Below, piece by piece: positions 7,168 through 62,176 of a DNA stretch of 64,000 nt. The notes below the pieces were generated by a model. The model had not been told where the DNA came from. It worked only from the letters and a program-made list of their open reading frames with translations, and did not search any database. How positions within the stretch are numbered: position 1 is the first letter of the stretch; each line of letters starts with the position of its first letter. The stretch lies in NCBI GenBank assembly GCA_016714535.1, contig JADKDR010000005.1:358966-422965 (forward strand), in the 5' to 3' direction. The position numbers were made by a program, and so were the translations under genes. Source of the DNA: Bacteroidota bacterium (GTDB lineage Bacteria; Bacteroidota; Bacteroidia; AKYH767-A; OLB10).

Positions 7168-7175
7168 TATATTTG
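7168..7175 (+). promoter_or_regulatory. Bacteroidetes sigma-A -7 box (TAnnTTTG) upstream of the cupredoxin gene
   Basis: Sequence tatatttg lies about 30 nt upstream of the ATG at 7205. Confidence 0.4.
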
Positions 7176-7204
7176 CTTAACTCTTAAATCAAAAAAAATC
7201 AAAA

Positions 7205-8290: not shown

Positions 8291-8390
8291 TTAGTTGCTA
8301 CATTGATCTTCGTTAATATGGTTTCAGCCATTTTATGCACGATTATTAGAAACATTTTTAAACAAGTTATATAGCAGGATTGAAAATAGT

Positions 8391-8398
8391 TACATTTG
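8391..8398 (+). promoter_or_regulatory. -7 box TAnnTTTG upstream of M43 peptidase 1
   Basis: Sequence tacatttg lies 37 nt upstream of the ATG at 8435. Confidence 0.35.
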
Positions 8399-8434
8399 CA
8401 AAAAGATAATTAACACAATAAATTCTTTAAAATA

Positions 8435-9697: not shown

Positions 9698-9720
9698 ATT
9701 TAAATAAATAATTTTAAAAA

Positions 9721-9757
9721 AGCGCAACTAAGAAGTACTTTTGGTTGCGTTTTTTTA
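9721..9757 (+). terminator. Rho-independent terminator
   Basis: agcgcaac…gttgcgt stem followed by a T7 run, 24 nt after the stop of the first M43 gene. Confidence 0.5.
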
Positions 9758-9802
9758 TTATCAATAGTCTCTAAGAAAAGTGCGTTAAAGCACCATCACC
9801 GT

Positions 9803-23142: not shown

Positions 23143-23275
23143 GGTGTTCGACAAGCCATACAGAGCATTTCGAAGAGCGAGTTGTACAATAACTTGAGAC
23201 ATTGTTTTACAAAACTATCAAGTATCTGCATTGCAAATGCACATGAGTGTGGGACATCCGCATTGCAAATGCGGA
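23143..23275. repeat. Repeat module M1 (~130 bp), copy 1: …caagccataCRGARcatttcg…tacaataacttgaRacatYgttttacaaaac…gcattgcaaatgcRgacgagc
   Basis: About 80% identical by eye to 23425-23535 and 26228-26335. Contains two copies of the near-palindrome gcattgcaaatgc. Confidence 0.7.
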
Positions 23276-23535
23276 CTAATGGGGGAGACTTAACTGTAAC
23301 TATATACGTTGCTTTAACTTTTTACATTGCGTAAGAGTCAACAGACTACATGCATTATTAAGATTTGTGCGAGGTTGCAAGTATTGTATTCTCCCCTCTC
23401 CTGAAGGAGAGGGGCAGGGGGTGAGGTTTTTCAACAAGCCATACGGAACATTTCGAGGCATGAGTTTTACAATAACTTGAAACATCGTTTTACAAAACAA
23501 TCATGAATCCGCATTGCAAATGCAAACGAGCAGTG
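23275..23535. repeat. Composite repeat unit (module M2 + module M1), full copy A
   Basis: About 90% identical over roughly 260 bp to 26055-26335. Starts …ttaactgtaactatatacgttgc and ends …gcattgcaaatgcaaacgagc. Confidence 0.8.
23393..23414. other. GC-rich perfect hairpin inside repeat copy A (cccctctcc-tgaa-ggagagggg), followed by cagggggtgagg
   Basis: 9-bp perfect inverted repeat with a 4-nt loop. The identical sequence recurs at 26171-26192. Confidence 0.7.
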
Positions 23536-23559
23536 GATCCTGATACATTACAATTTTGA

Positions 23560-23630
23560 TTTTTAAACAACTTGAAGCATTGCATTAGAAAACTATCTGG
23601 TATCAGCATCGGATATGCGGACGAGCAAAA
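23560..23630. repeat. Partial M1-variant copy (…aaaactatctggtatcagcatcggatatgcggacgagc)
   Basis: Shares …tacaaaactatctggtatcag.atc..atatgcggacgagc with 24575-24632. Confidence 0.6.
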
Positions 23631-23701: not shown

Positions 23702-23911
23702 ATGCACACAGTACATCCACACTACATCACTGACAATACAGGAAAAAAAATATCCGTGGTGCTACCAATGCAAGAGTTTAAAGCTATAATGGAAGAATTG
23801 GAAGAGTTAGCAGATATTAAACTTTATGATGAAGCCAAAGAATCCAACGAGCCTTCTATTCCTATTGACGATGCTTTCAATATAATTGAAGCAAAACGCA
23901 AAGCGAAGTAA
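23702..23911 (+). CDS. Type II antitoxin, Phd/YefM-like
   Basis: 69 aa. KKISVVLPMQEFKAIMEELEELADI resembles the Phd/YefM core. Its stop overlaps the ATG of the downstream RelE/ParE gene (taATG). Confidence 0.6.
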   Translation: MHTVHPHYITDNTGKKISVVLPMQEFKAIMEELEELADIKLYDEAKESNEPSIPIDDAFNIIEAKRKAK

Positions 23912-24165
23912 TGGTTTACAATGTTACTTTAAAGAAACGAGCCATTAAAGCTCTTCTACAAATTAATGAGCCATATTATTCCGAGATCAAGAAGGCTATT
24001 TATAGCCTTGCCAATATTCCGCGCCCTATTGGATATAAAAAACTAAAAGGCAGAGATGGGTAGCGTATCCGTGTGTCAGATTGCCGCATTATTTACGAAA
24101 TTTTTGACGATGTCCTTATTGTTGATGTTATTGACCTCGGGCACAGAAAAGATATTTACGAATAA
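23911..24165 (+). pseudogene. RelE/ParE-family toxin gene interrupted by an in-frame TAG at 24061-24063
   Basis: Reads MVYNVTLKKRAIKALLQINEPYYSEIKKAIYSLANIPRPIGYKKLKGRDG-(TAG)-RIRVSDCRIIYEIFDDVLIVDVIDLGHRKDIYE. The amber replaces the conserved aromatic of the G(Y)xxRVGDYRIIY motif. Confidence 0.7.
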
Positions 24166-24373: not shown

Positions 24374-24555
24374 TAGCTGGATTTGAATGTATATTATTTT
24401 TCTTTATTTCACAAACTTGTTAGTGGGAATTTCTTTTTCTTAATTGCCTTCTTCCCAATTCCAAATTTCATCTTTCTTAATAGTAACAGTAGTAACGAAC
24501 TTGTTCTGCCACTGGTTTTGTAAAGGCTTGCGAGAAATTCTCCTACATTAAAATA

Positions 24556-24720
24556 TGTTTTTACAACGACTGGAGAAATTGGTTTACAAAACTATCTGGT
24601 ATCAGTATCACATATGCGGACGAGCGGGCGTGTAGCGCTAAGAATATACGTTGCTTGTGCTTTTAAACTTGTGCACGAGTCACTCTCTGATTGCCTTGGC
24701 TGTGACTCGCCCGAGGCTAA
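24556..24720. repeat. Partial repeat copy (M1-variant end joined to M2-like start …aatatacgttgcttgtgctttt…)
   Basis: Shares gcggacgagcgg and atatacgttgc segments with the full copies. Confidence 0.55.
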
Positions 24721-24724
24721 ATGA

Positions 24725-25519
24725 TTAGTGTTTAATAACAATTTTGTAAGTTTTTATTTGTTCTCCTTGAGTAAGTGAGACAAAATAAATTCCATTATTG
24801 ATTTTTGAAACATCAAGCGATATTGAGGCACTAACTCCTGCAAATATTTTATCAAGTATTTTTTCACCAAGAGAATTGTATAATTGAACTGTCATGTTTC
24901 GCAAGTCAAATGGATGGTTGATAAATAATTCATTGTTTGCGGGGATAGGAAATATAGAATAATTTGGAATTTGAGTTTCTATTAAATCTAAAGCGCAACT
25001 GCCATAAGTGCAATTGCCAAAAACTGAAGAAATGCTGTCTGTAAAACAACTTAAGGCGCAATTTCCTGTGTTTACATAATTGGCATATACTATAAAGCCA
25101 TAATCTAATACAAATCCATAAGTTAAATCTCCAATACCTTGAACCCATTGAATAGGGTCTTGGTACATTTGATAGAAGGGTATACGGGTAAATTTGATTC
25201 TCTTACGTGGAACTCCGCCCAAAATAAGCGTATCAACTGAATCAACGGCAAGAGCATAAGTGTTGGGAAAGGGTGTGTTTGTAACAGCATTAAATGTAAA
25301 CGAATCTCCTACATTCAAGGTAAAATCATATAATAAATTTAGTGAATTGGGATCTGTACCAGCAAAAACTTTATTCGAATCAGTATGAATATAAATCCAA
25401 GGTTTAAGACACAGGGAATCAAAAATTTCTGATTTTGACGAATCAACTTTTTGCAAGAACTTATTATTGACTATAGTATCTCCAGTAATTTGAGTTTGCT
25501 GATAGGTACAGACACACAA
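24725..25519 (-). pseudogene. N-terminally truncated fragment of a T9SS C-terminal-domain (secreted) protein gene
   Basis: 264-aa ORF with a typical CTD (…MTVQLYNSLGEKIL…GIYFVSLTQGEQIKTYKIVIKH). No signal peptide and no ATG. The in-frame upstream sequence hits a stop after about 25 codons. No other minus-strand ORF between 25.5 and 26.1 kb. Confidence 0.6.
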
Positions 25520-26054: not shown

Positions 26055-26335
26055 TTGGTTGTGGACTTTAGGGAGGCTTAACTGTAACTATATACGTTGC
26101 TGCAGCTTTTTACATTACGATTGATTCAACAGTCTGCATGCATTGTTAAGACTTGCACGAGGCTGCGTGTATTGTATTCTCCCCTCTCCTGAAGGAGAGG
26201 GGCCGGGGGTGAGGTTTAAATCGCTGTTCAACAAGCCATACGGAACATTTCGCAGCATGAATTTTACAATAACTTGAAACATCGTTTTACAAAACAATCA
26301 TGAATCCGCATTGCAAATGCGGACGAGCGGGGGGG
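26055..26335. repeat. Composite repeat unit (M2 + M1), full copy B, in direct orientation relative to copy A
   Basis: …ggcttaactgtaactatatacgttgc…ctcccctctcctgaaggagaggggccgggggtgagg…caacaagccatacggaacatttcg…gcattgcaaatgcggacgagcggggggg. Confidence 0.8.
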
Positions 26336-29802: not shown

Positions 29803-32631
29803 TTACTTATGCACTTCAATTTTACAAAAGTTGGTTTTGCCTCTAGCTGCAACCCGCGCTATGTATAGTCCATTAACCACTTCTTGCCCCGAATTATCTT
29901 TTAAATTCCACGTAGCAAAACCAACATTACTTTTATTGTCAGTAGGTAAGGTATTTATCAAGCGACCGTTTAAGTCGTAAATCATTATTTCAGAATTATT
30001 ACCTCCGGTAGAATTAAAGTACATAAGTGTTACCTCTGAGCTTGCAGGGTTAGGGAAGCAAGTCAAATAAGCAGGGTTTGGCAAAATAAATGATTCCTCT
30101 ACAAAAACGGGGGTAAATGCAGGTAATTTGCTATCGGTATATAAACGGTATTCGCCCTCAGTCAACCCAATGGCATCCTGCACATGGGAAACAGTTACAC
30201 TATCACCGGTAAAATATTCATACCACCAACCTGTATGTTGAAAATAAGGGACTATGGATAATGGATATATATCAAAATTGCCAAGTACCACAGCATTCAT
30301 TTGTGAATCATTCAATCGTATTGATTTTCCGCCACCATTTAAAGACATATTGAAACTGTTCGTTTTAAATACCTGAAAATCTTTTTTTAATTTCATCAGG
30401 TTTCCAGTTACATCATATAAATGCTTGCGTGCCGGTTGGTAATAATAAAACCACTTTAGTGGTTTTGGGGCTGTGTTGCCACCACCAAAAAGCAAGCTAA
30501 CATCATAGCCTAATTCTCCAAACTGCCATAGCATTTTAGGACCCGGTACAGTATAAAAAAATGCTGAAGCTAGTTCCATTCGCGCAAGTGCGTTTATCGT
30601 ATCCTTCAAATTATAGTTTGGATTGGTGCTGTTGCCAAAGGTAATATTCTTAAACATCAACCGTTGCTCATCGTGACTTTCCATATAACCTACAAGGTGA
30701 GGAGAATTATATCCTCTGTTTTGATAAGATACACCACTAAAGTTGCTATTGCTTAACCAACCCATTGTTGCTTCATTGTAATTATGAGTCATATTACCCC
30801 AAAGCATCATACCATAATCGGCCAGCTCTTTTTCTTCTTGATTGTCGGCAAACATTTCAAGTATTACATAGCTGGTAGGATCTATATTCCACATCACATC
30901 AGCTATACGTTTCAGATTATCAATGCGTGCACCATCATATGCATTCCAAGCTGTAATATTGCCAAGGGTGTTCTTTTGAGTAAATCCTTTTGCCAAATCG
31001 AAGCGATATCCATCTACTTTAAATTCATTAATCCAAAATTCAACCACGCGATCAACAAAATATTCGGTGGCAGGTGCATCGTGATTCATATCGTAACAAA
31101 CATTAAAATCATGTTTAGGTTGTTGATTAAACCATGGGCTGTTTGCTGCAGGCTGACTATTGCCGGCATCCCAGTATAGTTGCACCATGGGGCTTTGCCC
31201 GCATGAGTGGTTAAGCACAATATCAGAAATTACCGCAATGCCACGAGCGTGGCACGTATCAATAAATTCTTTAAGCTTATCTTTAGTTCCATAATATTTG
31301 TCCACTGCAAAGTAGTACGATGGATTATAACCCCAACTATTGTTGCCTTCAAATTCGTTAACAGGCATGAGCTCAATGGCATTAATTCCGAGCACTTGTA
31401 AATACTCAAGTGTGTCGAGCAAAGTTTGAAAATTTCGTGGACCCACAAAATCGCGAATACACAATTCATAAATTATCAAATCAGTTTTTGCCGGCTTGGT
31501 AAAATTTGTAACGGTCCATGTATACGGAGTTTGTGCAGTTTGCAAAACTGAAACGATACCTTGCGTTTTTCCGGTAGGGTAGGGTGTGGGGTTAGGATAG
31601 GTGGCAAGCGATATTCCTGCATCATTATTTGGGTCAACAATTTTATGGCAATAAGGATCGCCAATTCGCAACTCACCATCAACAAAGTATTGATAGGTAT
31701 ATTCCTCACCAGGTAGTAAATTATTTAACTGAACCCAATAACGGTCGCCTGCCGGAGTGCGATGCATAAAATACAAACTATCGGTAGTCCACGAATTAAA
31801 ACTGCCAAGCACATAAACGAAATTTTTGCTGGGAGCATACAGATTGAGTATCACTGCGCTGTCATTTAAATAGGTAATACCATCGAGGGTATTTGTTGGC
31901 AATGGTGCTATTACCTGTTGTGGGTTTACAACAATTATTATGGTATCGTAAGAAGTAGTAATACCATCATTGGCTTCGAATACTACTTGATTATTTCCTG
32001 ATTGATTAAAGGTGATATTGGTTGCAAGCGTATCGCTTGCACTTTGGTTTGCTTGTAATACACCGTTTACAAGAAAGCTTAAATCTGCATTCGCGTTGCA
32101 TATACCTGTAACATTAAGATTGCTTCCTTGTGCAACAATCAATGGTTGATTGAATGATAGAGCCGGATCAGTAATTTTTACATTAAGGCCTGCTGTATAA
32201 ACAGGGATAAACATATCACTGCCATCGGCATTGCGTCCAACAACACTTCCGGTGGTATTACGAAATACAAATGCAAGACTAAGTATTGTTTCGTTTGCAG
32301 GCACATTGTAATAACTGCGTATGTGATATTTAATTCTATAAAGATTATTTCCAAGCGAGGTCATGAGTACATTAGTATCGGCCACTCCCCATTGGCTCTT
32401 TACATATTTCCAATCGCTAGGACCAGAACTTAAATTGGTAATAACTCCGGTATGAGCATAGATTGGGGGTGGAGTTTGAGCCAGTGCACCATTTCCTTTA
32501 GTTGCATCGTATATGATTGTAATAGTATCTGTATCTGTACAAAAATAGGGTGACCATGTAAGTGGATTGTTTTGAGCAGAGGCCAACAGGTAAAAACTTA
32601 AAACCAATGATAACAAAGTTATTTTTTTCAT
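29803..32631 (-). CDS. GH13-family alpha-amylase/pullulanase-like glycoside hydrolase with Ig-like domains and T9SS C-terminal domain
   Basis: 942 aa. Signal peptide. GH13 catalytic region (…DGYRFDLAKGF…, …MESHDE…). CTD …EIMIYDLNGRLINTL…. Confidence 0.8.
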   Translation of the reverse strand: MKKITLLSLVLSFYLLASAQNNPLTWSPYFCTDTDTITIIYDATKGNGALAQTPPPIYAHTGVITNLSSGPSDWKYVKSQWGVADTNVLMTSLGNNLYRIKYHIRSYYNVPANETILSLAFVFRNTTGSVVGRNADGSDMFIPVYTAGLNVKITDPALSFNQPLIVAQGSNLNVTGICNANADLSFLVNGVLQANQSASDTLATNITFNQSGNNQVVFEANDGITTSYDTIIIVVNPQQVIAPLPTNTLDGITYLNDSAVILNLYAPSKNFVYVLGSFNSWTTDSLYFMHRTPAGDRYWVQLNNLLPGEEYTYQYFVDGELRIGDPYCHKIVDPNNDAGISLATYPNPTPYPTGKTQGIVSVLQTAQTPYTWTVTNFTKPAKTDLIIYELCIRDFVGPRNFQTLLDTLEYLQVLGINAIELMPVNEFEGNNSWGYNPSYYFAVDKYYGTKDKLKEFIDTCHARGIAVISDIVLNHSCGQSPMVQLYWDAGNSQPAANSPWFNQQPKHDFNVCYDMNHDAPATEYFVDRVVEFWINEFKVDGYRFDLAKGFTQKNTLGNITAWNAYDGARIDNLKRIADVMWNIDPTSYVILEMFADNQEEKELADYGMMLWGNMTHNYNEATMGWLSNSNFSGVSYQNRGYNSPHLVGYMESHDEQRLMFKNITFGNSTNPNYNLKDTINALARMELASAFFYTVPGPKMLWQFGELGYDVSLLFGGGNTAPKPLKWFYYYQPARKHLYDVTGNLMKLKKDFQVFKTNSFNMSLNGGGKSIRLNDSQMNAVVLGNFDIYPLSIVPYFQHTGWWYEYFTGDSVTVSHVQDAIGLTEGEYRLYTDSKLPAFTPVFVEESFILPNPAYLTCFPNPASSEVTLMYFNSTGGNNSEIMIYDLNGRLINTLPTDNKSNVGFATWNLKDNSGQEVVNGLYIARVAARGKTNFCKIEVHK

Positions 32632-32793
32632 TTTTAAATTAGTTGAGGTGATAGATTAACAATTGAATAAAAAAAGGGTTAACATTAATTATTAACCCTT
32701 CGTATTACTTGGAATTATTAGTTTTTTGCTTCTAAATAAAAAGCGGTAAAGGAAAACTTACCTTCACCGCGGATGAAAAGCATGAAAACTATC

Positions 32794-33567
32794 TTAACGA
32801 TTTACGTTTACTTTTTGAGTTGACACGATACTTCCGTTTGCTTCTAAACGTAAGAAGTAGATGCCATTTGCTACTGAACCACCTGCATTATTATCTGCAT
32901 TCCAATCGTACACATATGCTTTACGACCAATTTGAGCTTCGTTATCAACAATAGTCTTAACTAAGTTTCCTACCAAATCGTAAAGTTTCAAAGATACGCT
33001 ATTGTTATTATTTACCAAAGAATAACCTAACTTAGCATATGTTGATACCGGGTTTGGATTACAGGCAAGAAAAACTAGTTGCGAAGTTGGAGCATCCAAA
33101 GACTGAGGTGTAGCTAATGGTACAATAATATCGGTACAAGCACCAGTTGAATCAAATCCTTTGCCTTCGTTGGTCCAAGTGCTCATATCACTTTGCTCAC
33201 AAAATACCATATCCAAATGGTATGCAATGTTTGGCGCAGTAACACTGTAGTAAGTAGCTGGAATAAGAGAGATGCTAAATGATCCGGCACCATTCCCGAA
33301 CATAATAGCTGCAGGGTTATCTTTTTGAACAACATTTTGCCACTTGCTAATATTGGGATCTGGGTCGAAGCCAACTCCTGAGTGCATATAAGCATTAGCA
33401 GCAGCAGGATCAATCGCTGCTCCTGGCGCGCAAGCTTGACTTACATCAAGGGTTAGGGTAATTTGGGTATTCATGTCGGCATTGGCAGGCGACATTACAA
33501 CTACTTGTGCGTTGGAATTTAATGCTGCCCCAGCGCAAACAGCTACGAAGAGTAATTTTTTAATCAT
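32794..33567 (-). CDS. Hypothetical T9SS C-terminal-domain protein immediately upstream of the GH13 gene
   Basis: 257 aa. Signal peptide. CTD …VSLKLYDLVGNLVKTI…GIYFLRLEANG…. Confidence 0.55.
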   Translation of the reverse strand: MIKKLLFVAVCAGAALNSNAQVVVMSPANADMNTQITLTLDVSQACAPGAAIDPAAANAYMHSGVGFDPDPNISKWQNVVQKDNPAAIMFGNGAGSFSISLIPATYYSVTAPNIAYHLDMVFCEQSDMSTWTNEGKGFDSTGACTDIIVPLATPQSLDAPTSQLVFLACNPNPVSTYAKLGYSLVNNNNSVSLKLYDLVGNLVKTIVDNEAQIGRKAYVYDWNADNNAGGSVANGIYFLRLEANGSIVSTQKVNVNR

Positions 33568-36234: not shown

Positions 36235-37302
36235 TTGTTCAATGGAAATATCCACGGCATTTTTATTAAATATTTAACCAAATACCCCATGAAGGCACAT
36301 TATCAGCTCGTTATTAATTTGGCCTTGGTTGCTTTGTTGTTGGTATATGCCATCCCAATGTTATATGCTGTTCCTACTGCCGATGATTATTGCTCAGGTG
36401 TATATCAACATTTAGGTTTTGTAGAATTTATTTTATACTATGCTAAGCTTTACACCGGCCGATTGGGTGCCGTGGCACTCATGTATTTTACTCCCCTTGC
36501 CGGATCGCCTGTTTCTTATAGCTTTGGATTACTTGCTTGTTGGGCGTTTTTAATTTTTTCTATTTTTCTGTTTTCGTATAAACTTTTTTCAAAACCTGAA
36601 ATAAGTACAACGTTTGCTTTGCTTTTTAGTTGTTGCTATATGGCATGCCTCATTAACCCGAGCGAAACCTTATATTGGTTTACCGGTGTGGCAACGTATA
36701 CTGTAGCGGTGTCATTTGTATTTTGTTTGTTGGGTTTTATGCAATTTAAAACAAATGTGCTAATTGCATTAATGTGCATGGTGCTAGGATTTATTATTCC
36801 TTTATTCAGTGAGTTGTTTATTATTCCGCTCTTATTTTTACTGTGCTATATAAATATTAAAAAGGCTGTTTTTTCGTTACATCTTCGTGTCAATGCGCGA
36901 TATGCTTTAGTTGGTCTTGTTACTGGCACTGCTTTATTTGCATGCATGCCTGGCAACTGGGTTCGGCTAGATCAATATCACAACAATCTGAATCTGTTTT
37001 CAGCTGCTGGTACCGCACTTTTTTATTCAATCATTTTTATTTTTAGAATATCATTTCATCCCGTTATGATTATTAGTTTATTCTTAATTGCAATTTATAT
37101 AGATGAGATAAAACAACACACCAAATTGCGCGAAATAAAGGGACAATTACCTTATAATGGGGCAATGTTTTTAATTTTTATGGCATGTTTCATACCTGCT
37201 TTTTTTACAGGAATATTAGGACAGCACCGCACCATAGATGCAGTTATTCCGTTTGTGATTTTTTTGTTTTGGTATTGGGTTTTTTTGCTTAGCTGGGACT
37301 GA
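36235..37302 (+). CDS. Hypothetical polytopic membrane protein
   Basis: 355 aa with roughly 9 hydrophobic segments. The start may be the internal Met at 36289. Confidence 0.45.
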   Translation: MFNGNIHGIFIKYLTKYPMKAHYQLVINLALVALLLVYAIPMLYAVPTADDYCSGVYQHLGFVEFILYYAKLYTGRLGAVALMYFTPLAGSPVSYSFGLLACWAFLIFSIFLFSYKLFSKPEISTTFALLFSCCYMACLINPSETLYWFTGVATYTVAVSFVFCLLGFMQFKTNVLIALMCMVLGFIIPLFSELFIIPLLFLLCYINIKKAVFSLHLRVNARYALVGLVTGTALFACMPGNWVRLDQYHNNLNLFSAAGTALFYSIIFIFRISFHPVMIISLFLIAIYIDEIKQHTKLREIKGQLPYNGAMFLIFMACFIPAFFTGILGQHRTIDAVIPFVIFLFWYWVFLLSWD

Positions 37303-37710
37303 TGCATTTATTCATGTAAAAACATTTTTACAAATACGAATTATTCGGATTATCGCTGTTGTTTTAGTAATCGCCATAGTTTCATTTGATGTTATTCTAA
37401 TATTAAACGAATGGATAAGTGGCGAATTATCCAACTATAAGCAAGAGCAAGAAGGTCGTATAATAAAAATTAGTAAAGCCAATGATGCTCATTTGTATGC
37501 AGTTGATAGTTTGAAACATACCAATACGATACTTTATAAATACGATATAAAACCTGGCGACAGCACTTTTTATATTAACTATTGTATGTGGGAATACCTA
37601 CAACAGAGTAAGTAGAGTTTATAGTAAATGTGCTTTCCCAAATTTGGTAATCAGTTGCAAAAAGTGGCTTATTGAATTTATCATGAATATTATCGTGTTG
37701 CGAAATAATT

Positions 37711-46619: not shown

Positions 46620-47650
46620 ATGAGAATTCTTAAGATAATTGGCTTCCTATTATTAGTAGTAGTTGCCATTGTTGCATTTTTAGGTTGGCGCGCTGCCGGC
46701 CCTTATTCAGTTACCGAATCTGCAAACATTAAAGGAAACACAGATGTGGTATGGAAGAATATCGCAGACCTTAAATCGTTTTCCGACTGGAATCCCTGGG
46801 CTAAAGAAGACCCCAATATTAAAGTCACCTTTAATGGTGATCCAATGGCAGTAGGTAGTTCCTATTCGTGGGGGGAAATAAAAATGTAGGTGTAGGTTCA
46901 ATGACAACCACCGAACTTGTTGTAAAAAGTAAAGCTGTAAGCAAACTCAACTTTAAAGAGCCAATGGAAGATGAAGCAACCACCGTTATGACCATGGAGC
47001 CAAATGCGGATGGTACCACCAAGGTATCATGGACCATGCAAGGTGAAAATAAATTTCCAGCCAGCATTTTTGCAGCTGTTTTCAATATGGATAAAATGTT
47101 GAGAACCTCATTCCAAAAGGGCTTTACGCTTTTGCAGGAGAAAGTTACTGTTGAATCAGCTTCAGCTCCTCAGGATGCGGGCGGCAATTTTAAAATTGAA
47201 GAAAAACAATTTGCCGGAGGTACATTTGTTACTGTACGCAAGGAAGTTGCATTTGCCGACATTCCTAAATTTTACCAAGAAAATTTTGGAAAAATGTTTG
47301 AATTGTGTGGCAAAACCAAGGTTAAAATGGCTGGACCACCCTGTGGCATTTATTATAAATATGATATGGAAAAACAGGTAGCTGACCTTGCCGCAGCTAT
47401 ACCGGTGGCAGCGGGTTCAAAGGTTGAAGGGTATTCAGTAATTGATGTAGCAGAAGCACCTTATTATCATTTGGATTATTACGGTGCTTACGAGAAAATG
47501 GAACCAGCTTACAATGCTTTGGATGCATTTGCAAAAGGTAAGGGAAAAGAACCTAATCCATATATGGTTATTGAGCAATATGTAAGCGACCCAATGACTG
47601 AGAAAGACACAACCAAATGGCTAACACAAATACACTATTTCCTGAAATAA
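46620..47650 (+). CDS. SRPBCC (START/Bet v1-like) domain fused to a GyrI-like small-molecule-binding domain; frameshifted in a G6 run (46870-46875), probably a sequencing artefact
   Basis: ORF 46620-46889 (…AVGSSYSWGEIKM*) and ORF 46868-47650 (GGNKNVGVGSM…) join as …SYSWGGNKNVGVG… if one G is added. The C-terminal half matches the GyrI-like effector-binding fold (…YYGAYEKM…). Confidence 0.55.
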
Positions 47651-53308: not shown

Positions 53309-54131
53309 ATGGGAATAAGAAAATTGCGTCCGCTCACACCCGGACAGCGCTTTAAGTTGCAGAATGATTATGCTGAAATAACGACCGACAAACCGGAAAA
53401 AGTTTGTTGAGTCATTAAAGCGTAGCGGTGGTAGAAATAATACTGGGAAAATGACAATGCGTTACATTGGTGGTGGACACCGTAAAATGTACCGTATTAT
53501 TGATTTTAAGCGTGATAAATTTGGGATCAGTGGAATAGTAAAGACAGTGGAGTATGATCCAAACCGCAGTTCTTTTATCTCTTTAGTTCATTACAGTGAT
53601 GGAGATAAGAGATATATCATCGCACCTGAAGGGCTTGCAGTTGGTCAAACTGTTGTGTCAGGAGAAAATGCAGCACCTGAAGTTGGTAATTGCCTCCCTT
53701 TGAAAAGCATTCCTTTGGGATCTATGGTTCATAACATTGAATTGCGCCCAGGGCAAGGAGCCAAAATGGCTCGCAGCGCAGGTACTTACGCGCAGTTACT
53801 AGCACGTGACAGAAAGTACGCTGTTTTGAAAATGCCGAGTGGAGAAACAAGATTGGTATTAGCAGCATGCATGGCTTCTATAGGCAAAACTTCAAATCCT
53901 GATCATAATCAGGAAAGCTATGGTAAAGCTGGAAAGACTCGTTGGTATGGACGTAGACCACGTACTCGTGGAGTTGCAATGAACCCTGTTGATCATCCAA
54001 TGGGTGGTGGAGAAGGTCGTGCTTCAGGAGGTCATCCACGTTCACGCAAAGGCTTATTGGCTAAAGGCAAAAAGACAAGAAAGGTAAATCATGTTACCAA
54101 TAAGTTTATCATCGAAAGAAGAAAGAAATAA
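53309..54131 (+). CDS. rplB: 50S ribosomal protein L2, interrupted by an A5 homopolymer frameshift at 53397-53401 (almost certainly an assembly error)
   Basis: N-terminus [31 protein letters not shown] (ATG 53309) runs into a stop. The +1 frame continues …[33 protein letters not shown]… as the 226-aa track ORF. Deleting one A restores a canonical L2. Confidence 0.9.
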
Positions 54132-54156
54132 TAACACGATAAAGAAATAAAAACAA

Positions 54157-54438
54157 ATGAGTCGTTCGTTAAAGAAAGGTCCTTTTATAGATGTGAAGCT
54201 TGAAAAGCGCATCCTAGCCTTAAATGAAAAGGGAAAAAAATCACCCTTGAAAACTTGGGCACGCAGAAGCATGATATCACCGGACTTTGTAGGTCATACC
54301 ATAAATGTGCATGCCGGAAAAACATTTTGGCCTGTTTATGTAACTGAAAATATGGTTGGTCATAAATTAGGAGAGTTTTCACCTACCCGCGTGTTTCGTG
54401 GACATGCAGGTAATAAAGATAAAGGAGGAAAGAAATAA
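54157..54438 (+). CDS. rpsS: 30S ribosomal protein S19
   Basis: [12 protein letters not shown]… S19 signature. Confidence 0.95.
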
Positions 54439-54860
54439 TGGGAGCAAGAAAAAGAATAGCAGCCGAAGCTCGTAAGGAGGCTTTAAAAGAAATTAGTTTT
54501 GCACGTTTGACCAGTTGTCCAACATCGCCTCGTAAAATGCGATTAATGGCAGACCTAATTCGTGGTAAAAAGACTGCAGAAGCTTTAAGCATTTTACGTT
54601 TCAGTACTAAGCATGCATCTGAAAGACTAGAAAAAGTACTTGTTTCAGCCATTGCCAACTTCGAGGCTAAAAATCCAGGGCAAAAGGCAGACGATACTTT
54701 TGTAAAGGAAGTATATATTGATAGTGCACGCATTTTAAAACGGATGCGCCCGGCACCTCAGGGACGTGGTTATAAGATACGTAAGCGCTCAAATCATATC
54801 ACGTTAATCATTGATTCAACATCTAAAAATACTGAAACTGCAGAAGTGTCTGCAAACTAA
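54438..54860 (+). CDS. rplV: 50S ribosomal protein L22
   Basis: 140 aa. Position between S19 and S3, and family similarity. Confidence 0.9.
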
Positions 54861-54870
54861 TAAATAAAGA

Positions 54871-55647
54871 ATGGGACAAAAAGCCAATCCGATAGGAAAC
54901 AGATTAGGAATCATACGTGGATGGGACTCCAACTGGTATGGAGGTAATAACTATGCCGATAAATTGGTTGAAGACGAAAAAATTCGTAGCTATCTTAATA
55001 CCCGTTTATCTAAAGGTGGAATTTCGAAAATTGTAATTGAGCGTACCCTGAAATTAATAACCGTAACCATACATACAGCAAAGCCTGGCATGGTGATAGG
55101 TAAAGGTGGAGCAGAAGTAGATAAGTTAAAGGAGGAATTGAAAAAACTAACCAAGAAGGAAGTTCAAATAAATATATTTGAAATTAAGCGACCAGAGTTG
55201 GATGCAAAGTTAGTTGGTGAGTCGGTTGCTAAACAGTTAGAAGGACGTATAAGTTTCCGCAGGGCAGTAAAGGCAGCTATTAGCAGTACCATGCGTGTTG
55301 GAGCCGAAGGAATTAAAATTATGTGTGCAGGCCGTTTAGGCGGAGCCGAAATGGCACGTACCGAGCAGTATAAAGAAGGACGTACTCCATTACATACTTT
55401 TCGTGCAGATATCGATTACGCTGTAAGTGAAGCACAAACATCGTACGGGAAAATCGGAGTTAAGGTTTGGATTTGCAGAGGAGAAGTATATGGTAAGCGT
55501 GATTTGTCACCAAATATTGGAATGACCAATTTGAAAACAAGAGATTCCGGAGAGCGCAATGATCGCAATGATCGTGGAGGCGACCGCAGAGATCGCGGAG
55601 GCGACCGTGGTGGTAGAGGTGGAAGAAGAAAACCGGATAATAATTAA
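54871..55647 (+). CDS. rpsC: 30S ribosomal protein S3 with Arg/Gly/Asp-rich C-terminal tail
   Basis: 258 aa. KH/S3-C motifs. Tail [26 protein letters not shown]. Confidence 0.95.
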
Positions 55648-55690
55648 TAAGAATAAAGAATCAGAAGTTTAGAATAAAAAAGAGAGTAAA

Positions 55691-56110
55691 ATGCTTCAGC
55701 CTAAAAAGACAAAATTTAGAAAAACCCATAAGATGAAGTCTAAGGGGAATGCCACTCGAGGTGCTGAAATAGCCTTCGGTTCATTTGCCTTAAAATCAAC
55801 AGAGCGAGCCTGGGTTACAGCACGACAGTTGGAAGCAGCCCGTGTTGCGGTTACCAGGTATATGAAGCGCGAAGGTCAGATTTGGATTCGTGTATTTCCT
55901 GATAAACCAATTACTAAAAAACCTGCCGAGGTTCGTATGGGAAAAGGAAAAGGAGCCCCAGAATATTGGGTTGCCGTAGTTAAGCCCGGAGCTATATTGT
56001 TTGAAGCAGAAGGAGTACCATTAGCAACAGCAAAAGAAGCTTTACGTTTGGCTGCACAAAAACTTCCTGTGATTACAAGATTTATAACAAGGCGTGATTT
56101 TGCTGAGTAG
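55691..56110 (+). CDS. rplP: 50S ribosomal protein L16
   Basis: 139 aa. [11 protein letters not shown]…. Confidence 0.95.
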
Positions 56111-56153
56111 GTTTTGAAAGAATTATTAATGATTGAAAAAAAGAAATCAAGAA

Positions 56154-56351
56154 ATGAAACAAACTATTGTAAATGACTTATCTAACGAAGAGTTAAAGGA
56201 TAAAATCGCTGAAGAGAAAGTTGCTTTGACAAAGCTTAAATTTAGTCACGCAATTTCTCCAATAGAGAATCCAATGAAGATTCAGGCCGCACGTAAAGTT
56301 ATCGCACGCCTGATTACAGAATCAAGAAAAAGACAGTTATCAAATAAATAA
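56154..56351 (+). CDS. rpmC: 50S ribosomal protein L29
   Basis: The start is placed at an internal ATG of the 72-aa track ORF. …[14 protein letters not shown]… is the L29 family. Confidence 0.85.
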
Positions 56352-56363
56352 TTAAAAGAGGTA

Positions 56364-56627
56364 ATGGAAGAACTTAAGCGATCATTACGCAAAGAAAAGG
56401 TTGGAGTGGTAACCAGTAACAAAATGGAAAAAACCATTGTTGTTGCTGTTGAACGTAAGGTGAAACATCCCAAGTATGGAAAATTTATCAAGACCACCAA
56501 TAAATTTAAAGCGCATGATGAAAAAAACACTGCAGGGATAGGGGATATAGTGCGCATTATGGAAACCAGACCATTAAGCAAGACTAAAAACTGGAGATTA
56601 GTTGAAATACTGGAAAAAGCTAAATAA
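56364..56627 (+). CDS. rpsQ: 30S ribosomal protein S17
   Basis: 87 aa. …[19 protein letters not shown]…. Confidence 0.95.
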
Positions 56628-56652
56628 TTAAATAGTAAAATAGCAATATAAT

Positions 56653-57021
56653 ATGATACAGCAGGAGTCGAGATTAACTGTAGCCGATAACAGCGGAGCC
56701 AAAGAGGTACTATGTATTCGTGTATTGGGTGGCACAAGAAAGAGATACGCCCGCCTTGGAGACAAGATTGTTGTTACGGTAAAGCATGCCATACCTTCAG
56801 GAAATGTGAAAAAGGGAACCGTTTCAAAAGCAGTAGTAGTGCGTGTAAAGAAAGAAGTGAGAAGAAACGATGGCTCATACATTCGATTTGATGATAACGC
56901 TGTGGTTTTATTAACTGCAAATGACGAATTGCGTGGTACGCGTATTTTCGGACCCGTAGCCCGCGAATTACGCGAAAAACTATACATGAAAATAGTTTCA
57001 TTAGCTCCTGAGGTTCTTTAA
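56653..57021 (+). CDS. rplN: 50S ribosomal protein L14
   Basis: 122 aa. [17 protein letters not shown]…. Confidence 0.95.
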
Positions 57022-57042
57022 TATCAAAATGAATAAGTAAAG

Positions 57043-57390
57043 ATGAATACACAAAATAGACATAAACCTAAATTGAAGCTTCGCAAAGGAGATACGGTTG
57101 TAGTTATTTCAGGCGAATCAAAAGGCCGTCAGGGTAAGATTACGCAAGTTATAGTTGAAAAAAACCGTTGCCTTGTTGAAGGGGTTAACTTAGTGTCGAA
57201 GCATACTAAGCCTAACGCAAAAAATACGCAAGGGGGAATTGTTAAACAAGAGGCAACAATTCATATAAGTAACTTAATGCTTGTGGATAGTAAGTCTGGC
57301 AAAGGAACTCGCGTAGGTCGCAGAATAGAGAACGATAGCATTGTTCGTTTCAATAAAAAATCAGGTGAAACAATAAAAGATTCTAAGTAA
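57043..57390 (+). CDS. rplX: 50S ribosomal protein L24
   Basis: 115 aa. KOW motif …[17 protein letters not shown]…. Confidence 0.9.
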
Positions 57391-57392
57391 AA

Positions 57393-57940
57393 ATGGCAAC
57401 GTCTCCAAGATTAAAAGATAAATACAAAAGGAAATTGCTGCTTCCTTAATGAAGAAGTTTAACTACAAAAGCAGCATGCAAGTGCCTAGGTTGGTAAAAA
57501 TTTGCTTAAACCAAGGTGTAGGTGATGCTGTTGGTGATAAAAAATTAATGGATGCAGCGCTTAACGAAATGACCATCATTGCTGGACAAAAGGCAGTACC
57601 TACTAAATCCAAGAAGGACATTTCGAATTTTAAGCTTCGTATAGGTGTAAATATTGGCGCCAGAGTCACTTTAAGGGATAATAATATGTATGAATTCCTT
57701 GATAGGCTGATTGCTGTATCCTTGCCACGGATTCGCGATTTTCGCGGGATAAGTGATAAAGGGTTTGATGGAAGAGGTAATTACACGTTAGGAGTTACTG
57801 AACAAATCATTTTTCCGGAAATTGATATTGATAAAGTAAACAAAATTTCTGGTATGGATATCACCTTTGTTACCACTGCCAATACAGATAATGAAGCCCG
57901 TGAATTATTAACAGAGTTTGGATTCCCATTTAAAAAATAA
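57393..57940 (+). CDS. rplE: 50S ribosomal protein L5, interrupted by a homopolymer frameshift (A4 run 57426-57429; one A appears to be missing)
   Basis: N-terminus [14 protein letters not shown] (ATG 57393) hits a stop. The -1 frame gives …[24 protein letters not shown]…, matching the L5 N-terminus, and continues as the 163-aa track ORF. Confidence 0.9.
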
Positions 57941-57958
57941 CAAAAGGAATAAGCAGAA

Positions 57959-58228
57959 ATGGCAAAAGAATCGATGAAGGCCCGCGAGGTCAAAAGACAA
58001 AAGATGGTAGCAAAATATGCTGCAAAACGTGCAGCTTTAAAAGAAGCGGGTGATTATGCAGCACTAAGTTTACTACCTAAAAATTCTTCAGCAGTGAGAT
58101 TGCACAATCGTTGCAAACTTACAGGACGTCCGAGGGGTTACATGCGTCAGTTTGGAATATCCAGAGTATTGTTCCGTCAAATGGCACTTGATGGTAAAAT
58201 TGCTGGTGTAGTAAAGGCATCTTGGTAA
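57959..58228 (+). CDS. rpsN: 30S ribosomal protein S14
   Basis: 89 aa. [15 protein letters not shown]…. Confidence 0.9.
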
Positions 58229-58259
58229 TTTAATAAGCAAAAGAAAAATATTATTTAAA

Positions 58260-58658
58260 ATGACAGATCCGATTTCAGATTATTTAACCAGGTTACGCAA
58301 TGCGATTAAAGCAAATCATCGTATTGTAGAGGTACCTGCTTCAAATATCAAAAAAGAAATAACAAAAATATTGATGGAGAAGGGCTATATTTCAAACTAT
58401 CGTTTTGAAGATACTGCCAACCATCAGGGAGTTATTAAGGTTGCTTTAAAATACCATCCGGTTACAAAGTTACCTGCCATCCAACACCTTCGCAGGATAA
58501 GCCGTCCAGGCCTTCGCCAATATGCCGGACATGGAAGCGTTCCCCGCGTTCTCAATGGATTAGGCATAGCCATAATGAGCACCTCAAAAGGGGTTATGAC
58601 TGATAAAGAAGCAAAAGCTCAAAAGATAGGTGGCGAAGTACTTTGTTTTGTATATTAA
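58260..58658 (+). CDS. rpsH: 30S ribosomal protein S8
   Basis: 132 aa. MTDPISDYLTRLRNA…. Confidence 0.95.
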   Translation: MTDPISDYLTRLRNAIKANHRIVEVPASNIKKEITKILMEKGYISNYRFEDTANHQGVIKVALKYHPVTKLPAIQHLRRISRPGLRQYAGHGSVPRVLNGLGIAIMSTSKGVMTDKEAKAQKIGGEVLCFVY

Positions 58659-58676
58659 TAATTAAAGAAAATTAAA

Positions 58677-59231
58677 ATGTCACGCGTAGGAAAATTACCC
58701 ATATCAGTACCCACAGGTGTAACCGTTACAGTAAACGGAGATAATGTAGTCGTTAAAGGTCCTAAAGGAACTTCAACACAACAATTAACAGATGGAATAG
58801 GTGCAACGATAAATGATGGCACTCTTGAAGTAACAAGGCCAACCGAGCAAAAGCGCCACAAAGCTTTACACGGTTTGTACAGGGCTTTAATCAATAACAT
58901 GATTAAAGGATGTAACGAGGGCTTTAAAGTTGAGCAAGAACTTGTCGGAGTCGGTTATCGTGCAACTAATACTGGAAATCTTTTGGATTTAGTATTGGGA
59001 TATTCGCATCATGTTATTTTTGATTTGCCTTCGGAAATCAAGGTTTCAACCAGACAAGATCGTGGTGCAAATCCTATCATAACTCTTGAAAGTCATGATA
59101 AACAACTATTAGGAGCGGTTTGTGCAAAAATCCGTTCGCTGCGTACCCCTGAACCTTATAAAGGAAAAGGTATTAAGTTTGTGGGAGAAGCATTACGCAG
59201 AAAAGCAGGTAAATCAGCAGCTAAAAAATAA
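58677..59231 (+). CDS. rplF: 50S ribosomal protein L6
   Basis: 184 aa. MSRVGKLPI…. Confidence 0.95.
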
Positions 59232-59242
59232 TTTTAAATCAC

Positions 59243-59590
59243 ATGCCAACTAAAAAAGTATTAAGAAGAAATAGCATTCGCAAGCGTGTTCGCAAAGTGA
59301 TAATAGGAACTTCACAAACTCCGAGATTATCCGTATTTCGAAGCAATCGCGATATATACGCTCAATTGATAGATGACGCAACTGGAACAACCATTTTGGC
59401 AGCATCTTCAAAAAAAATGAGTGAAAAAACAAATAAAACTGAAAAAGCTTCCAAAGTAGGAACAGAGATAGCATCAAAGGCTGTAGCTGCAGGAATTAAA
59501 ACTGTGGTGTTTGACCGCGGTGGATATTTATATCATGGACGTGTAAAGGCTTTGGCTGATGGTGCACGAATTGGAGGCCTAATTTTCTAA
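59243..59590 (+). CDS. rplR: 50S ribosomal protein L18
   Basis: 115 aa. …[19 protein letters not shown]…. Confidence 0.95.
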
Positions 59591-59600
59591 AATCGAAACA

Positions 59601-60116
59601 ATGGCAATAAACATAAGAAGAGTAAAATCTAGTGAGATAGAACTAAAGGACCGTCTGGTTGGTGTTAATCGTGTTACCAAAGTTACCAAGGGAGGTAGAG
59701 CTTTTTCCTTTGCAGCAATTATCGTTGTTGGCGATGAAAAAGGGGTAGTAGGTCATGGCCTTGGAAAAGCAAAAGAAGTATCCGATGCGGTAACTAAAGG
59801 TGTAGATGATGCTAAAAAAAATCTAGTGCGTGTAACGGTAAATAAGGGAACGGTTCCTCATGAGCAAGAAGGAAAATTTGGAGGAGCTCGAGTATTCCTT
59901 AAACCTGCCGCCCCCGGAACCGGAGTAATTGCCGGAGGTGCTATGCGTGCAGTTTTAGAGAGTGTAGGAATTACCGATGTATTGGCCAAATCAAAAGGTT
60001 CTTCTAACCCTCACAATGTGGTTAAGGCCACAATTAATGCCTTGGCTCAAATGCGAGATGCGGCTACAGTTGCAAACAATCGTGGCATTGAACTAACCAA
60101 GGTTTTTAACGGTTAA
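59601..60116 (+). CDS. rpsE: 30S ribosomal protein S5
   Basis: 171 aa. …[12 protein letters not shown]…. Confidence 0.95.
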
Positions 60117-60141
60117 TCCAAATAATAAAAAGAAAGTCGAA

Positions 60142-60321
60142 ATGGCAAGAGTAAAAATAACACAAGTAAAAAGCGGAATTGACCGCCCTGAGCGTCAGAA
60201 AAGAAATCTGAAGGCGTTAGGTTTTACTAAAATTGGTCAGTCAATAGAAAAGGAACTTAATGATCAGGTTCAAGGAATGATACGTAAAGTTTCTCATTTA
60301 GTTAGAGTAGAAAACATTTAA
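60142..60321 (+). CDS. rpmD: 50S ribosomal protein L30
   Basis: 59 aa, translated by eye as MARVKITQVKSGIDRPERQKRNLKALGF…. Below the ORF-track cutoff. Confidence 0.85.
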   Translation: MARVKITQVKSGIDRPERQKRNLKALGFTKIGQSIEKELNDQVQGMIRKVSHLVRVENI

Positions 60322-60335
60322 TAATCGAACAATCA

Positions 60336-60794
60336 ATGAATCTGCATAATCTGGCTCCGGCAAAAGGAGCTACCAAAACAAACCGAAGAAATGGACGTGG
60401 TCAGGGATCTGGCGGTGGAGGAACAGCTCGTAGAGGTCACAAAGGGGCACAATCGCGTTCGGGTTACTCTCAAAAAATTGGTTTTGAAGGTGGGCAAATG
60501 CCGCTTCAACGCAGGGTTCCTAAATTTGGCTTCAAAAATATCAACCGTGTTGAATACAAAGCAATCAACCTGGACGCAATACAAGCTTTGGTAGAAAAGA
60601 CTGGCGCTACTGACATAACTCCTCAATTGCTTTTTGAAAGAGGACTAGTTGCTAAGAGAGATTTGGTAAAAATATTGGGTAGGGGCGAAATTAAAGGAGC
60701 TATTAATATAACGGCCCACGCCTTTAGCGCAACTGCAAAAAACGCTATTGAGGCTAAAGGTGGTACCACCGCTTCAATACAAAAAAATAATTAA
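60336..60794 (+). CDS. rplO: 50S ribosomal protein L15
   Basis: 152 aa. MNLHNLAPAKGATK…RRG.GQG. Confidence 0.95.
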   Translation: MNLHNLAPAKGATKTNRRNGRGQGSGGGGTARRGHKGAQSRSGYSQKIGFEGGQMPLQRRVPKFGFKNINRVEYKAINLDAIQALVEKTGATDITPQLLFERGLVAKRDLVKILGRGEIKGAINITAHAFSATAKNAIEAKGGTTASIQKNN

Positions 60795-60835
60795 TCGGAA
60801 ATAGTAAGAGCTATAGCCAACTATCTTAAATAAAT

Positions 60836-62176
60836 ATGAAGAGATTTTTAACTACTATTCAAAACATCTTCCGAATCGAGGATTTGAAGTCAAAGCTTTT
60901 TATCACTTTGATTTGTATTCTTGTATATAGGCTTGGTGCTCATATTGTATTACCAGGTATAGATCCCCAAGCATTAGAGTCTTTAAAATCACAGGCTCAA
61001 GGGGGTTGTTTGGCTTGTTAGATATGTTTGCTGGTGGAGCATTTTCTCAAGCATCCATATTTGCAATTGGAATTATGCCATATATAAGCGCTAGTATTGT
61101 AATTCAGTTGTTATCAATGGCTATGCCATCCTTTCAAAAGCTTCAGAAAGAAGGAGAAAGCGGACGTAAGAAGTTGACACAATGGACTCGTTTACTAACA
61201 GTAGGGGTATGCTTATTACAAGCACCCGGATACTTAGTAAATTTGCAAGCACAAGCGCCAGGTGCAATTCTTGAGAATTCATTCATGTTTACCTTCACAT
61301 CAGTAATTATATTAACTGCTGGAACATTATTCGTAATGTGGCTGGGAGAAAAAATTCAGGATCGTGGAATTGGTAATGGTACTTCACTTATTATCATGGT
61401 TGGTATTATCGCCCGCTTACCACAGGCTATTGGAGGGGAGTTTACCAGAACCATGACTACCGGCAGCGGTGGTATACTAATGTTTTTAGTAGAAATTATT
61501 TTCTGGTTAAGTGTAATAGCTGCGGTTATATTGTTGGTGCAAGGAACCCGTAAAAATTCCTGTTCAATTTGCAAAAACAATTGTTGGTAATCGCCAATAT
61601 GGTGGTGTTCGTCAGTATATACCTTTAAAAGTAAATACAGCAGGTGTTATGCCGATTATTTTTGCTCAAGCCATTATGTTTATTCCATTGACAATAGCTC
61701 AGTTTTTTCCGAGCGAATCAATGCAGGGATTTTTAGCAGCATTTACTCGCAGCGAATCCTTCTGGTATAATTTCGTATTTGCATTATTGATAGTTGTTTT
61801 TACATATTTCTATACGGCTATTGCGGTTAATCCTAACCAAATGGCTGATGATATGAAGAAGAATAATGGGTTTGTTCCTGGTATAAAACCAGGAAGAAAG
61901 ACCGCTGAATTTATTGATGAAGTTATGTCGCGAATTACCCTGCCAGGTGCCTTGTTTCTTGCCTTGGTAGCAATCTTGCCTGCCATTGCACAATTAATCG
62001 GTATCAATCAAAATTTTGCACAATTTTTTGGAGGTACCAGTTTGTTGATTATGGTTGGTGTAATATTAGATACCCTTCAGCAGATTGAAAGTCAATTATT
62101 AATGCGTAAGTACGATGGATTGATGAAGTCGGGAAGGATTAAAGGACGCACAACGATGAGTGCGGTACCACAATAA
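60836..62176 (+). CDS. secY: Preprotein translocase subunit SecY, split into three ORFs by two homopolymer frameshifts (G5 at 61001-61005 with one G missing; A5 at 61552-61556 with one extra A)
   Basis: The three track ORFs (60836-61021, 61006-61590, 61649-62176) together read as a canonical SecY. A single-base repair at each site gives …KSQAQGGLFGLLDMFAGG… and …TRKIPVQFAKTIVGNRQYGG…. Confidence 0.9.

Follow-up and report, generated by a model that had tools for sequence, protein, structure and literature searches.

In the insect endosymbionts Buchnera and Blochmannia, frameshifts in essential genes at homopolymers are rescued by transcriptional slippage on poly(A) tracts. The tracts involved are ~9-10 A or more, are conserved within lineages and lie in reduced, AT-rich genomes. 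Slippage is known to be efficient on A/T runs from about 8-9 nt upwards. In programmed frameshifting, as for prfB (+1) and dnaX (-1), one gene is likewise read in two frames, at sites that are conserved across phyla and carry slippery motifs and stimulators. Residual homopolymer indels in Nanopore R9.4.1 assemblies (a cause of the fragmented gene calls that the IDEEL test measures) are a third, technical case: ±1-nt changes, mostly deletions, that split ORFs irrespective of gene function.

We analysed a 64,000-nt stretch of DNA from a Bacteroidota bacterium (the window), in which rplB, rplE and secY are all split at homopolymers. Unlike the Buchnera and Blochmannia tracts, the runs are just 4-5 nt, they are not conserved in relatives, and the organism has a large T9SS secretome. 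None of the hallmarks of the prfB and dnaX sites is present. The lesions do share the size, the prevailing direction and the blindness to function of Nanopore R9.4.1 residual indels, although here they are locally dense and strike short runs (A4, A5, G5, GG) despite an expected Illumina polishing round. The high local density and short affected runs therefore suggest locally unpolished or low-coverage stretches. We conclude with high confidence that the splits in rplB, rplE and secY stem from consensus errors of the deposited assembly and do not reflect the organism itself.

Split genes in the ribosomal protein cluster

An earlier note on this DNA had located splits in these three genes, and the ORFs are broken as it described. 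The comparison used here is a congeneric, short-read assembled close relative (Logan SRR14932589-92, contigs L161-L167). The genes and lesions of the cluster are:

53309..54131, + strand: rplB (ribosomal protein L2), split into ORFs 53309-53410 and 53451-54131
53397..53401, + strand: rplB lesion 1, A5 versus A6 in the close relative, 1-nt deletion (DNA alignment with Logan contig L165)
53409, + strand: rplB lesion 2, single G versus GG in the relative (TTGTTGAG versus TTGTTGGAG; TTGGAG to TTGAG), 1-nt deletion
57393..57940, + strand: rplE (ribosomal protein L5), true start at 57393, stop at 57447, main ORF 57449-57940
57426..57429, + strand: rplE lesion, A4 versus A5 in the relative, 1-nt deletion (DNA alignment)
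60781..60787, + strand: 3' end of rplO (L15), probable lesion, A7 versus A8 in the relative (...IQKK-stop to ...IQKNN-stop)
60836..62176, + strand: secY, in three pieces (60836-61021, 61006-61590 and 61649-62176) in frames 2, 1 and 2
61001..61005, + strand: secY lesion 1, 1-nt deletion that leaves GGGGG before TTG in place of the 6 nt of two Gly codons
61552..61556, + strand: secY lesion 2, A5 versus A4 in the relative, 1-nt insertion

All four homopolymer breaks are where they had been placed (A5 at 53397-53401, A4 at 57426-57429, G5 at 61001-61005 and A5 at 61552-61556; GAAAAAG, CAAAAGG, AAGGGGGTT and GTAAAAATT, with runs of 4-5 nt). The count of four lesions in three genes does not hold, as the DNA of the relative reveals a fifth, the GG to G change at 53409. 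The probable event in rplO would be a sixth. Pairwise DNA alignment with the close relative places 1-nt gaps at 53397, 53409, 57430, 61003 and 61552.

The earlier note had also proposed that a one-base change is enough to bring back a canonical protein in each gene. This is true of rplE and of each secY site, while rplB needs two changes, only 12 nt apart. A single-base rplB repair was compared at a site spanned by 94 relatives, some of them shown, and was rejected: the product is one residue short and reads FV where SLL is conserved, and the relatives shown read PEKSLL or PEKSLV, ungapped. The intermediate frame between the two lesions encodes SLL, the same as in homologues, and mending both lesions yields PEKSLLESLKR, gap-free against relatives. 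Repaired L2 matches TIGR01171 over 1-275 of 275 positions with 390 bits, compared to only 48-275 for the unrepaired fragment (NCBIfam).

Repair of rplE recovers KDKYKKEIA, in agreement with relatives, and gives an L5 of 182 aa that matches NF000585 over 3-180 of 181 positions (287 bits; NCBIfam) and is 99.5% identical to the 182-aa L5 of the close relative. For secY, a tblastn search with the SecY of a relative matched the window in three HSPs that are colinear and lie in frames 2, 1 and 2, and the three pieces are colinear on TIGR00967, covering positions 1-37, 40-230 and 257-414 of 414 (NCBIfam). No single piece reaches the cut-off of that model. The repaired 446-aa SecY matches it over 1-414 of 414 (398 bits), and the SecY of the close relative is also 446 aa. 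All three repaired proteins score above the curated cut-offs of these NCBIfam equivalog models. At the first secY site the relative has GGAGGA and repair yields QAQGGLFGLLDMFAGGAF, as in at least 152 relatives. At the second, where a coding-potential HMM switches frame at 61553/61557, repair yields QGTRKIPVQFAK, in exact agreement with relatives. The A-run at the 3' end of rplO is probably a further lesion, but relatives differ in the C-terminus of L15, which leaves this case ambiguous.

Intact relatives and purifying selection

The earlier note had suggested asking whether the same positions are intact in close relatives, and they are. The close relative, at 85.5% nucleotide identity and 97-99.5% amino acid identity for L2, L5 and SecY, has an intact L5 and SecY and an unbroken L2 N-terminus. 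No frame change was seen at any of the four junctions among the at least 97-156 related Bacteroidota loci listed, and at least 97 related loci read across the rplB junction in one frame. The panels of intact orthologues came from an L5 scan of genome contigs (best match listed 88%) and a repaired-SecY scan of metagenome contigs (best listed 69%). We found no same-species genome for comparison, the best relative being only 85% identical in DNA.

Against the close relative, the repaired genes have dN/dS values of 0.021 (L2), 0.003 (L5) and 0.014 (SecY), with dS above 1. The three SecY segments give 0.026, 0.009 and 0.016, the out-of-frame middle segment comprising 183 codons. For intact neighbouring genes the values run from about 0 to 0.058, and the repaired frames contain no in-frame stops. 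Since dN/dS is as low as in the intact neighbours, the lesions have no evolutionary age and the genes are not decaying pseudogenes. The relaxed selection and further lesions of a genuine pseudogene were not found, dN/dS being at most 0.026 in every segment. No tRNA genes were detected in the window, and no Rfam families in the whole window or in its repeat-rich stretch.

Lesions in non-essential genes and their distribution

Two genes outside the cluster carry the same type of lesion:

46870..46875, + strand: gene for an SRPBCC and GyrI-like protein, G6 (true G7), split into 46620-46889 and 46868-47650, with an HMM frame switch
37280..37286, + strand: gene for a DUF6056-like membrane protein, T7 with one T too many, split into 36235-37302 and a continuation to 37615

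In the first gene, the Polyketide_cyc2 match (3-141 of 142) spans the junction only after repair. The repaired protein is covered over 86-100% by 45 homologues of 323-366 aa, 38 of which cover at least 96%, and a W-x-G-N motif is invariant in all six aligned homologues. The repaired 459-aa membrane protein aligns over the junction with a Logan homologue of 426 aa (56% identity), and it matches DUF6056 over 61-431 of 442 positions (E=1.5e-4). A second T7 in this gene, at 37259-65, is an alternative lesion site. Homopolymer ±1-nt lesions thus fall in genes irrespective of essentiality. The earlier note had argued that any other isolated frameshift in the window loses weight.

Two other candidates were dropped. 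Downstream of the AIM24 gene, a possible frameshift at 6906-7145 was dismissed because the AIM24 domain is complete. Same-frame adjacent ORF pairs in 1-23 kb were dismissed too: every Pfam domain there is complete, and by locus-tag and accession arithmetic no pseudogene lies between 4976 and 18509.

Seven of the eight coding indels of the window lie in runs of 4 nt or longer, which make up 10% of window bases and are touched by ~20% of 6-nt windows. The association of indels with homopolymers exceeds chance. Six of the eight are deletions and two are insertions. Together with the intact relatives, purifying selection and lesions in non-essential genes, this direction agrees with the homopolymer-length assembly error that the earlier note had proposed. 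The distribution is patchy: all eight fall in 37-62 kb (~8 in 27 kb), whereas none was detected in the first 36 kb, although the two parts resemble each other in homopolymer content (P about 0.003, post hoc). Such patchiness is not expected if errors strike every homopolymer at a uniform rate, so patchy coverage or polishing must be assumed.

Probable origin of the errors

Proteins of the window exactly match NCBI MAG proteins MBK8846737-59 (435-kb contig). These accessions are bracketed by MBK8002123, MBK8278324 and MBK9947797, which are cited as MAG proteins of Singleton et al. 2021. The accession bracket, rather than the record itself, points to a Nanopore R9.4.1 activated-sludge MAG of that study as the probable source. 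In the published pipeline, Nanopore reads passed through CANU, Racon, two medaka rounds (model r941_flip213) and a single Racon round with Illumina data, the last run with --include-unpolished (PMC8012365). The data are therefore probably hybrid-polished, and not long-read-only as had been supposed. Leftover homopolymer indels that break gene calls are documented for such assemblies, especially in low-coverage bins, among them activated-sludge MAGs of the same laboratory (PMC9262707). Judging from skipped accession numbers, rplB and secY are apparently without a protein record and treated as pseudogenes, while L5, the GyrI-like protein and the membrane protein are deposited in truncated form.

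In the proposed mechanism, Nanopore R9.4.1 reads would miscount homopolymer bases, and some ±1-nt errors would survive long-read polishing and one short-read round along parts of the contig. Any such error within a gene would shift the frame, leading gene callers to report two or three ORFs or a pseudogene. From the lesions, their context, the intact orthologues and the selection on the repaired frames, we infer that the reads would contradict the consensus.

Very short runs, as in the GG to G change at 53409 and the A4 to A5 insertion, are usually correct in polished Nanopore consensus, and this counts against the proposed mechanism. An origin in consensus building or polishing, in which reads from co-occurring related strains or species cross-map to the conserved ribosomal-protein cluster and Racon or medaka writes a mixed consensus whose run lengths are wrong, would accommodate the patchiness, the close spacing of the two rplB lesions, the single Racon short-read round with --include-unpolished and the position of 5 or 6 of the 8 indels within the most conserved 8 kb of the window. 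We nevertheless consider it unlikely, as two lesions lie in poorly conserved genes (best homologues 56-59% identical) where cross-mapping is not expected, and every lesion but one falls in a homopolymer of 4 nt or more, which is what raw-signal miscounting predicts. Less probable again is that the mutations are real and very recent, arising for example in a sub-lineage that is hypermutable or dying, or as a minority variant that became fixed in the consensus, with rplB, rplE and secY as true pseudogenes. Homopolymers are natural hotspots of replication slippage too, and the annotation, going by its accession numbering, appears to call rplB and secY pseudogenes. However, a population abundant enough to assemble into a 435-kb contig is not compatible with five inactivating lesions that hit three essential, single-copy genes in the space of 8 kb, repaired-frame dN/dS values of 0.003-0.021 show that selection is not relaxed, and no second copy of these genes was seen within the window.

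It is hardly credible that the indels are real and are bypassed by transcriptional slippage or programmed ribosomal frameshifting, with full-length L2, L5 and SecY being made. The lesions are located on homopolymers, and +1 re-pairing of tRNA-Lys is formally possible at the second secY site (AAA AAT). Yet the runs are just 4-5 nt, or a single G, and no site has an in-frame X XXY YYZ heptamer or a stop or rare-codon +1 context. Moreover, rplB would need two shifts, both shift directions would be required across sites, the shifts are conserved in no related locus listed, and the non-essential genes bear the same lesions. The earlier note had likewise regarded slippage rescue as unlikely, and the short runs, the lack of a slippery motif or a conserved shift, and a rich T9SS secretome, not that of a reduced endosymbiont, all support that judgement. 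If true, recoding at these A4-A5 and G5 runs would be a form unknown to work at such short sites.

Consensus error thus remains the preferred reading. It leaves essential genes of this MAG mis-annotated, and any isolated frameshift or short ORF in the same assembly is suspect before any biological reading. As the errors are patchy, a genome-wide mean error rate would understate the local risk. The splits are an ordinary artefact that bears on trust in the rest of the assembly and have no biological significance of their own; in the living cell, rplB, rplE and secY would each be one intact ORF, with 274, 182 and 446 codons respectively.

Split genes in the ribosomal protein cluster

The S10-spc-alpha ribosomal protein cluster (EF-G, S10, L3, L4, L23, L2 ... 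L15, SecY, Map, IF-1, L36, S13) lies in the 3' third of the window, and by exact-sequence match the window proteins are NCBI records MBK8846737 (EF-G) to MBK8846759 (IF-1). Three genes are in pieces as deposited:

rplB: 53309-53410 and 53451-54131, two ORFs
rplE: start 57393, stop 57447; resumed ORF 57449-57940
secY: 60836-61021, 61006-61590 and 61649-62176, three pieces in frames 2, 1 and 2

The homopolymers at which the earlier note placed the breaks (A5 at 53397-53401, A4 at 57426-57429, G5 at 61001-61005, A5 at 61552-61556) match the window sequence exactly. Searching by tblastn with SecY of the best GTDB relative among the matches listed gave three colinear HSPs in frames 2, 1 and 2. The SecY pieces cover positions 1-37, 40-230 and 257-414 of TIGR00967 (NCBIfam), and none singly reaches its cut-off; repaired SecY (446 aa, with the 1-nt indels undone) matches 1-414/414 at 398 bits. 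Repaired L2 matches TIGR01171 (1-275/275) and repaired L5 matches NF000585 (3-180/181; both NCBIfam). The MBK88467 accession series skips rplB (L23 is ..41, S19 is ..42) and secY (L15 is ..57, Map is ..58), suggesting that the annotation pipeline marked both as pseudogenes.

For rplB, a single-base repair (A5 to A4) opens the frame, but the product is one residue short compared to relatives. The relatives shown, of 94 across this junction, read PEKSLL or PEKSLV without a gap, and the intermediate frame of the window encodes SLL there. At the junction, the DNA of the Logan relative (contigs of a close congeneric organism) is CCGGAAAAAAGTTTGTTGGAGTC and that of the window is CCGGAAAAAGTTTGTTGAGTC. 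Therefore, the window lacks one A (A6 to A5) and one G (GG to G, 53409), 12 nt apart, the latter outside any run of at least 4 nt. Repairing both deletions gives PEKSLLESLKR. The earlier description of the split genes was thus essentially correct, although it counted one base in rplB where there are two deletions.

Comparison with relatives and selection on the repaired genes

The Logan relative is represented by protein matches of at least 90% identity in the short-read assemblies of SRR14932589-92; its contigs L161-L167 share 85.5% DNA identity with the window. As the earlier note had proposed, the same positions were checked in these contigs and are intact: they encode a 182-aa L5, a 446-aa SecY and an L2 unbroken from its start.

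All coding-region gaps not a multiple of three in the alignment of the window with the Logan relative
53397 (rplB): window A5, relative A6; 1-nt deletion in window
53409 (rplB): window G, relative GG; 1-nt deletion in window
57430 (rplE): window A4, relative A5; 1-nt deletion in window
60779-87 (rplO; A7 run 60781-60787): window A7, relative A8; probable 1-nt deletion in window
61003 (secY): window GGGGG, relative GGAGGA; 1-nt deletion in window
61552 (secY): window A5, relative A4; 1-nt insertion in window

The rplO product ends in QKNN* in the window and QKK* in the Logan relative. Another homopolymer deletion is the probable cause; however, the L15 C-terminus is variable. In a panel of 160 loci among the matches listed, from GTDB genomes and metagenomes, no frameshift at the rplB, rplE or secY junctions is conserved. 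A single frame crosses the junction in 97 loci for rplB, 117 for rplE, and 156 and 154 for secY. All but one of the exceptions are cut by a contig end; the three rplE exceptions have one frame across the junction and were flagged solely for a match start at residue 7.

Repaired L2, L5 and SecY are 97.1%, 99.5% and 97.5% identical to the proteins of the Logan relative (dS >1), with dN/dS of 0.021, 0.003 and 0.014. Taken separately, the three segments of SecY, which include 183 codons out of frame as deposited, give 0.026, 0.009 and 0.016; in intact neighbours the values lie between about 0 and 0.058. The lesions are therefore without evolutionary depth: they must be artefacts or else have arisen practically at sampling.

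Lesions in other genes and their distribution

Lesions are not restricted to essential genes, as two further genes in the window are affected:

46620-47650: SRPBCC + GyrI-like gene, split at a G6 run (46870-46875) by a 1-nt deletion (true G7)
36235-37615: DUF6056-like membrane protein gene, one T too many in T7 at 37280-37286 or its twin at 37259-37265

A codon-model HMM trained on long ORFs of the window flagged direct frame switches at 61553/61557 and 46873. Repair of the SRPBCC + GyrI-like protein (343 aa; deposited as a 249-aa truncation, P0026) gains Polyketide_cyc2 (3-141/142) across the junction, and its 45 homologues (323-366 aa) align at 86-100% coverage (38 at 96% or more). W-x-G-N is invariant in six aligned homologues and needs TGG GGG GGA AAT, hence G7 at 46870-46875. 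In the DUF6056-like gene, deposited as a 337-aa truncation (IPO27_09365), the C-terminal 107 codons run on in the +1 frame. Once repaired (459 aa), the protein aligns through the junction to a 426-aa homologue from Logan, as far as the conserved C-terminal stretch YDIKPGDSTFYINYCMWEYL.

At 23702-24165, a RelB-like antitoxin gene precedes a ParE-family toxin gene in which an in-frame TAG (24061-24063) stands at an expected Tyr (GRDG*RIRV); when the stop is read as Y, the product matches ParE_toxin 2-89/89. Unlike the homopolymer indels, this is a base substitution; the toxin may be genuinely inactivated, or the base may have been miscalled.

Including rplO, the window has eight coding indels (six deletions, two insertions). 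Seven lie inside runs of at least 4 nt, which make up 10% of the window; G-runs of at least 5 number only 15 in 64 kb, yet hold two of the eight. All eight fall within 37.2-61.6 kb. None was seen in the 1-36 kb part, where Pfam domains are all complete (TonB receptor, S8 and M43 peptidases, MqnE, FtsY, MiaE, a two-component pair, PspC, 942-aa amylase, M13 peptidase). By locus-tag and accession arithmetic, there is no room for a pseudogene between 4976 and 18509. Because homopolymer content is alike in both parts (792 runs of at least 4 nt against 623), such clustering would be improbable if the process were uniform (post hoc P about 0.003); coverage or polishing that is patchy along the contig may account for it.

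C-terminal T9SS sorting domains (Por_Secre_tail) occur in at least seven genes (3276-11086, 24725-25519, 29803-33567), including S8 and M43 peptidases and the amylase, consistent with a secretome-rich, free-living Bacteroidota. A direct-repeat family (75-250 nt, 3-5 copies, 65-93% identical; 23147-23626, 24551-24682, 26071-26333) sits in a 4-kb gene-poor stretch, where it creates ORFs that are spurious ('FCKTMFQVIVK...PSPSGEGRIQY'). Searches there for Rfam families, tRNAs and inverted repeats found none.

Sequencing platform and alternative explanations

MBK8002123.1 is cited as a protein from the Singleton et al. 2021 activated-sludge metagenomes, and MBK8278324.1 and MBK9947797.1 are in GCA_016722055.1 and GCA_016712165.1, MAGs of that study. 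MBK8846737 falls numerically between MBK8002123/MBK8278324 and MBK9947797, and partly from this bracket the window is very likely part of the same submission. That pipeline used Nanopore reads, CANU v1.8, Racon and medaka v0.6.5 twice (r941_flip213), with one last Illumina Racon round (--include-unpolished) (PMC8012365). The same laboratory later reported that homopolymer indels persist in such consensus and introduce frameshifts into the gene calls, and that bins of low coverage are reliant on short-read polishing (PMC9262707).

Recoding at the frameshift sites is disfavoured. The runs are 4-5 nt or a single G, no site has a canonical slippery heptamer or +1 context in frame, rplB needs two shifts, both directions are needed among the sites, and no site is conserved in any relative. 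The organism is no reduced symbiont and has genes for many secreted proteins sorted by the T9SS, in agreement with the earlier view that slippage rescue is unlikely in such a free-living organism. True pseudogenisation, requiring five lesions in three essential single-copy genes, is contradicted by the dN/dS of the repaired genes and is hard to square with a population abundant enough for assembly of a 435-kb contig. For the conserved cluster, a mixed-strain consensus or mis-polishing by cross-mapped reads is a possible variant of the artefact, but this variant leaves the lesions in the two poorly conserved genes unexplained.

Intact relatives, low dN/dS and lesions in non-essential genes all support the assembly error originally proposed. 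The rplB, rplE and secY splits are almost certainly an assembly artefact of a well-known kind and nothing novel, and their sole value is as a warning when frameshifts or truncated ORFs are met elsewhere in this assembly.
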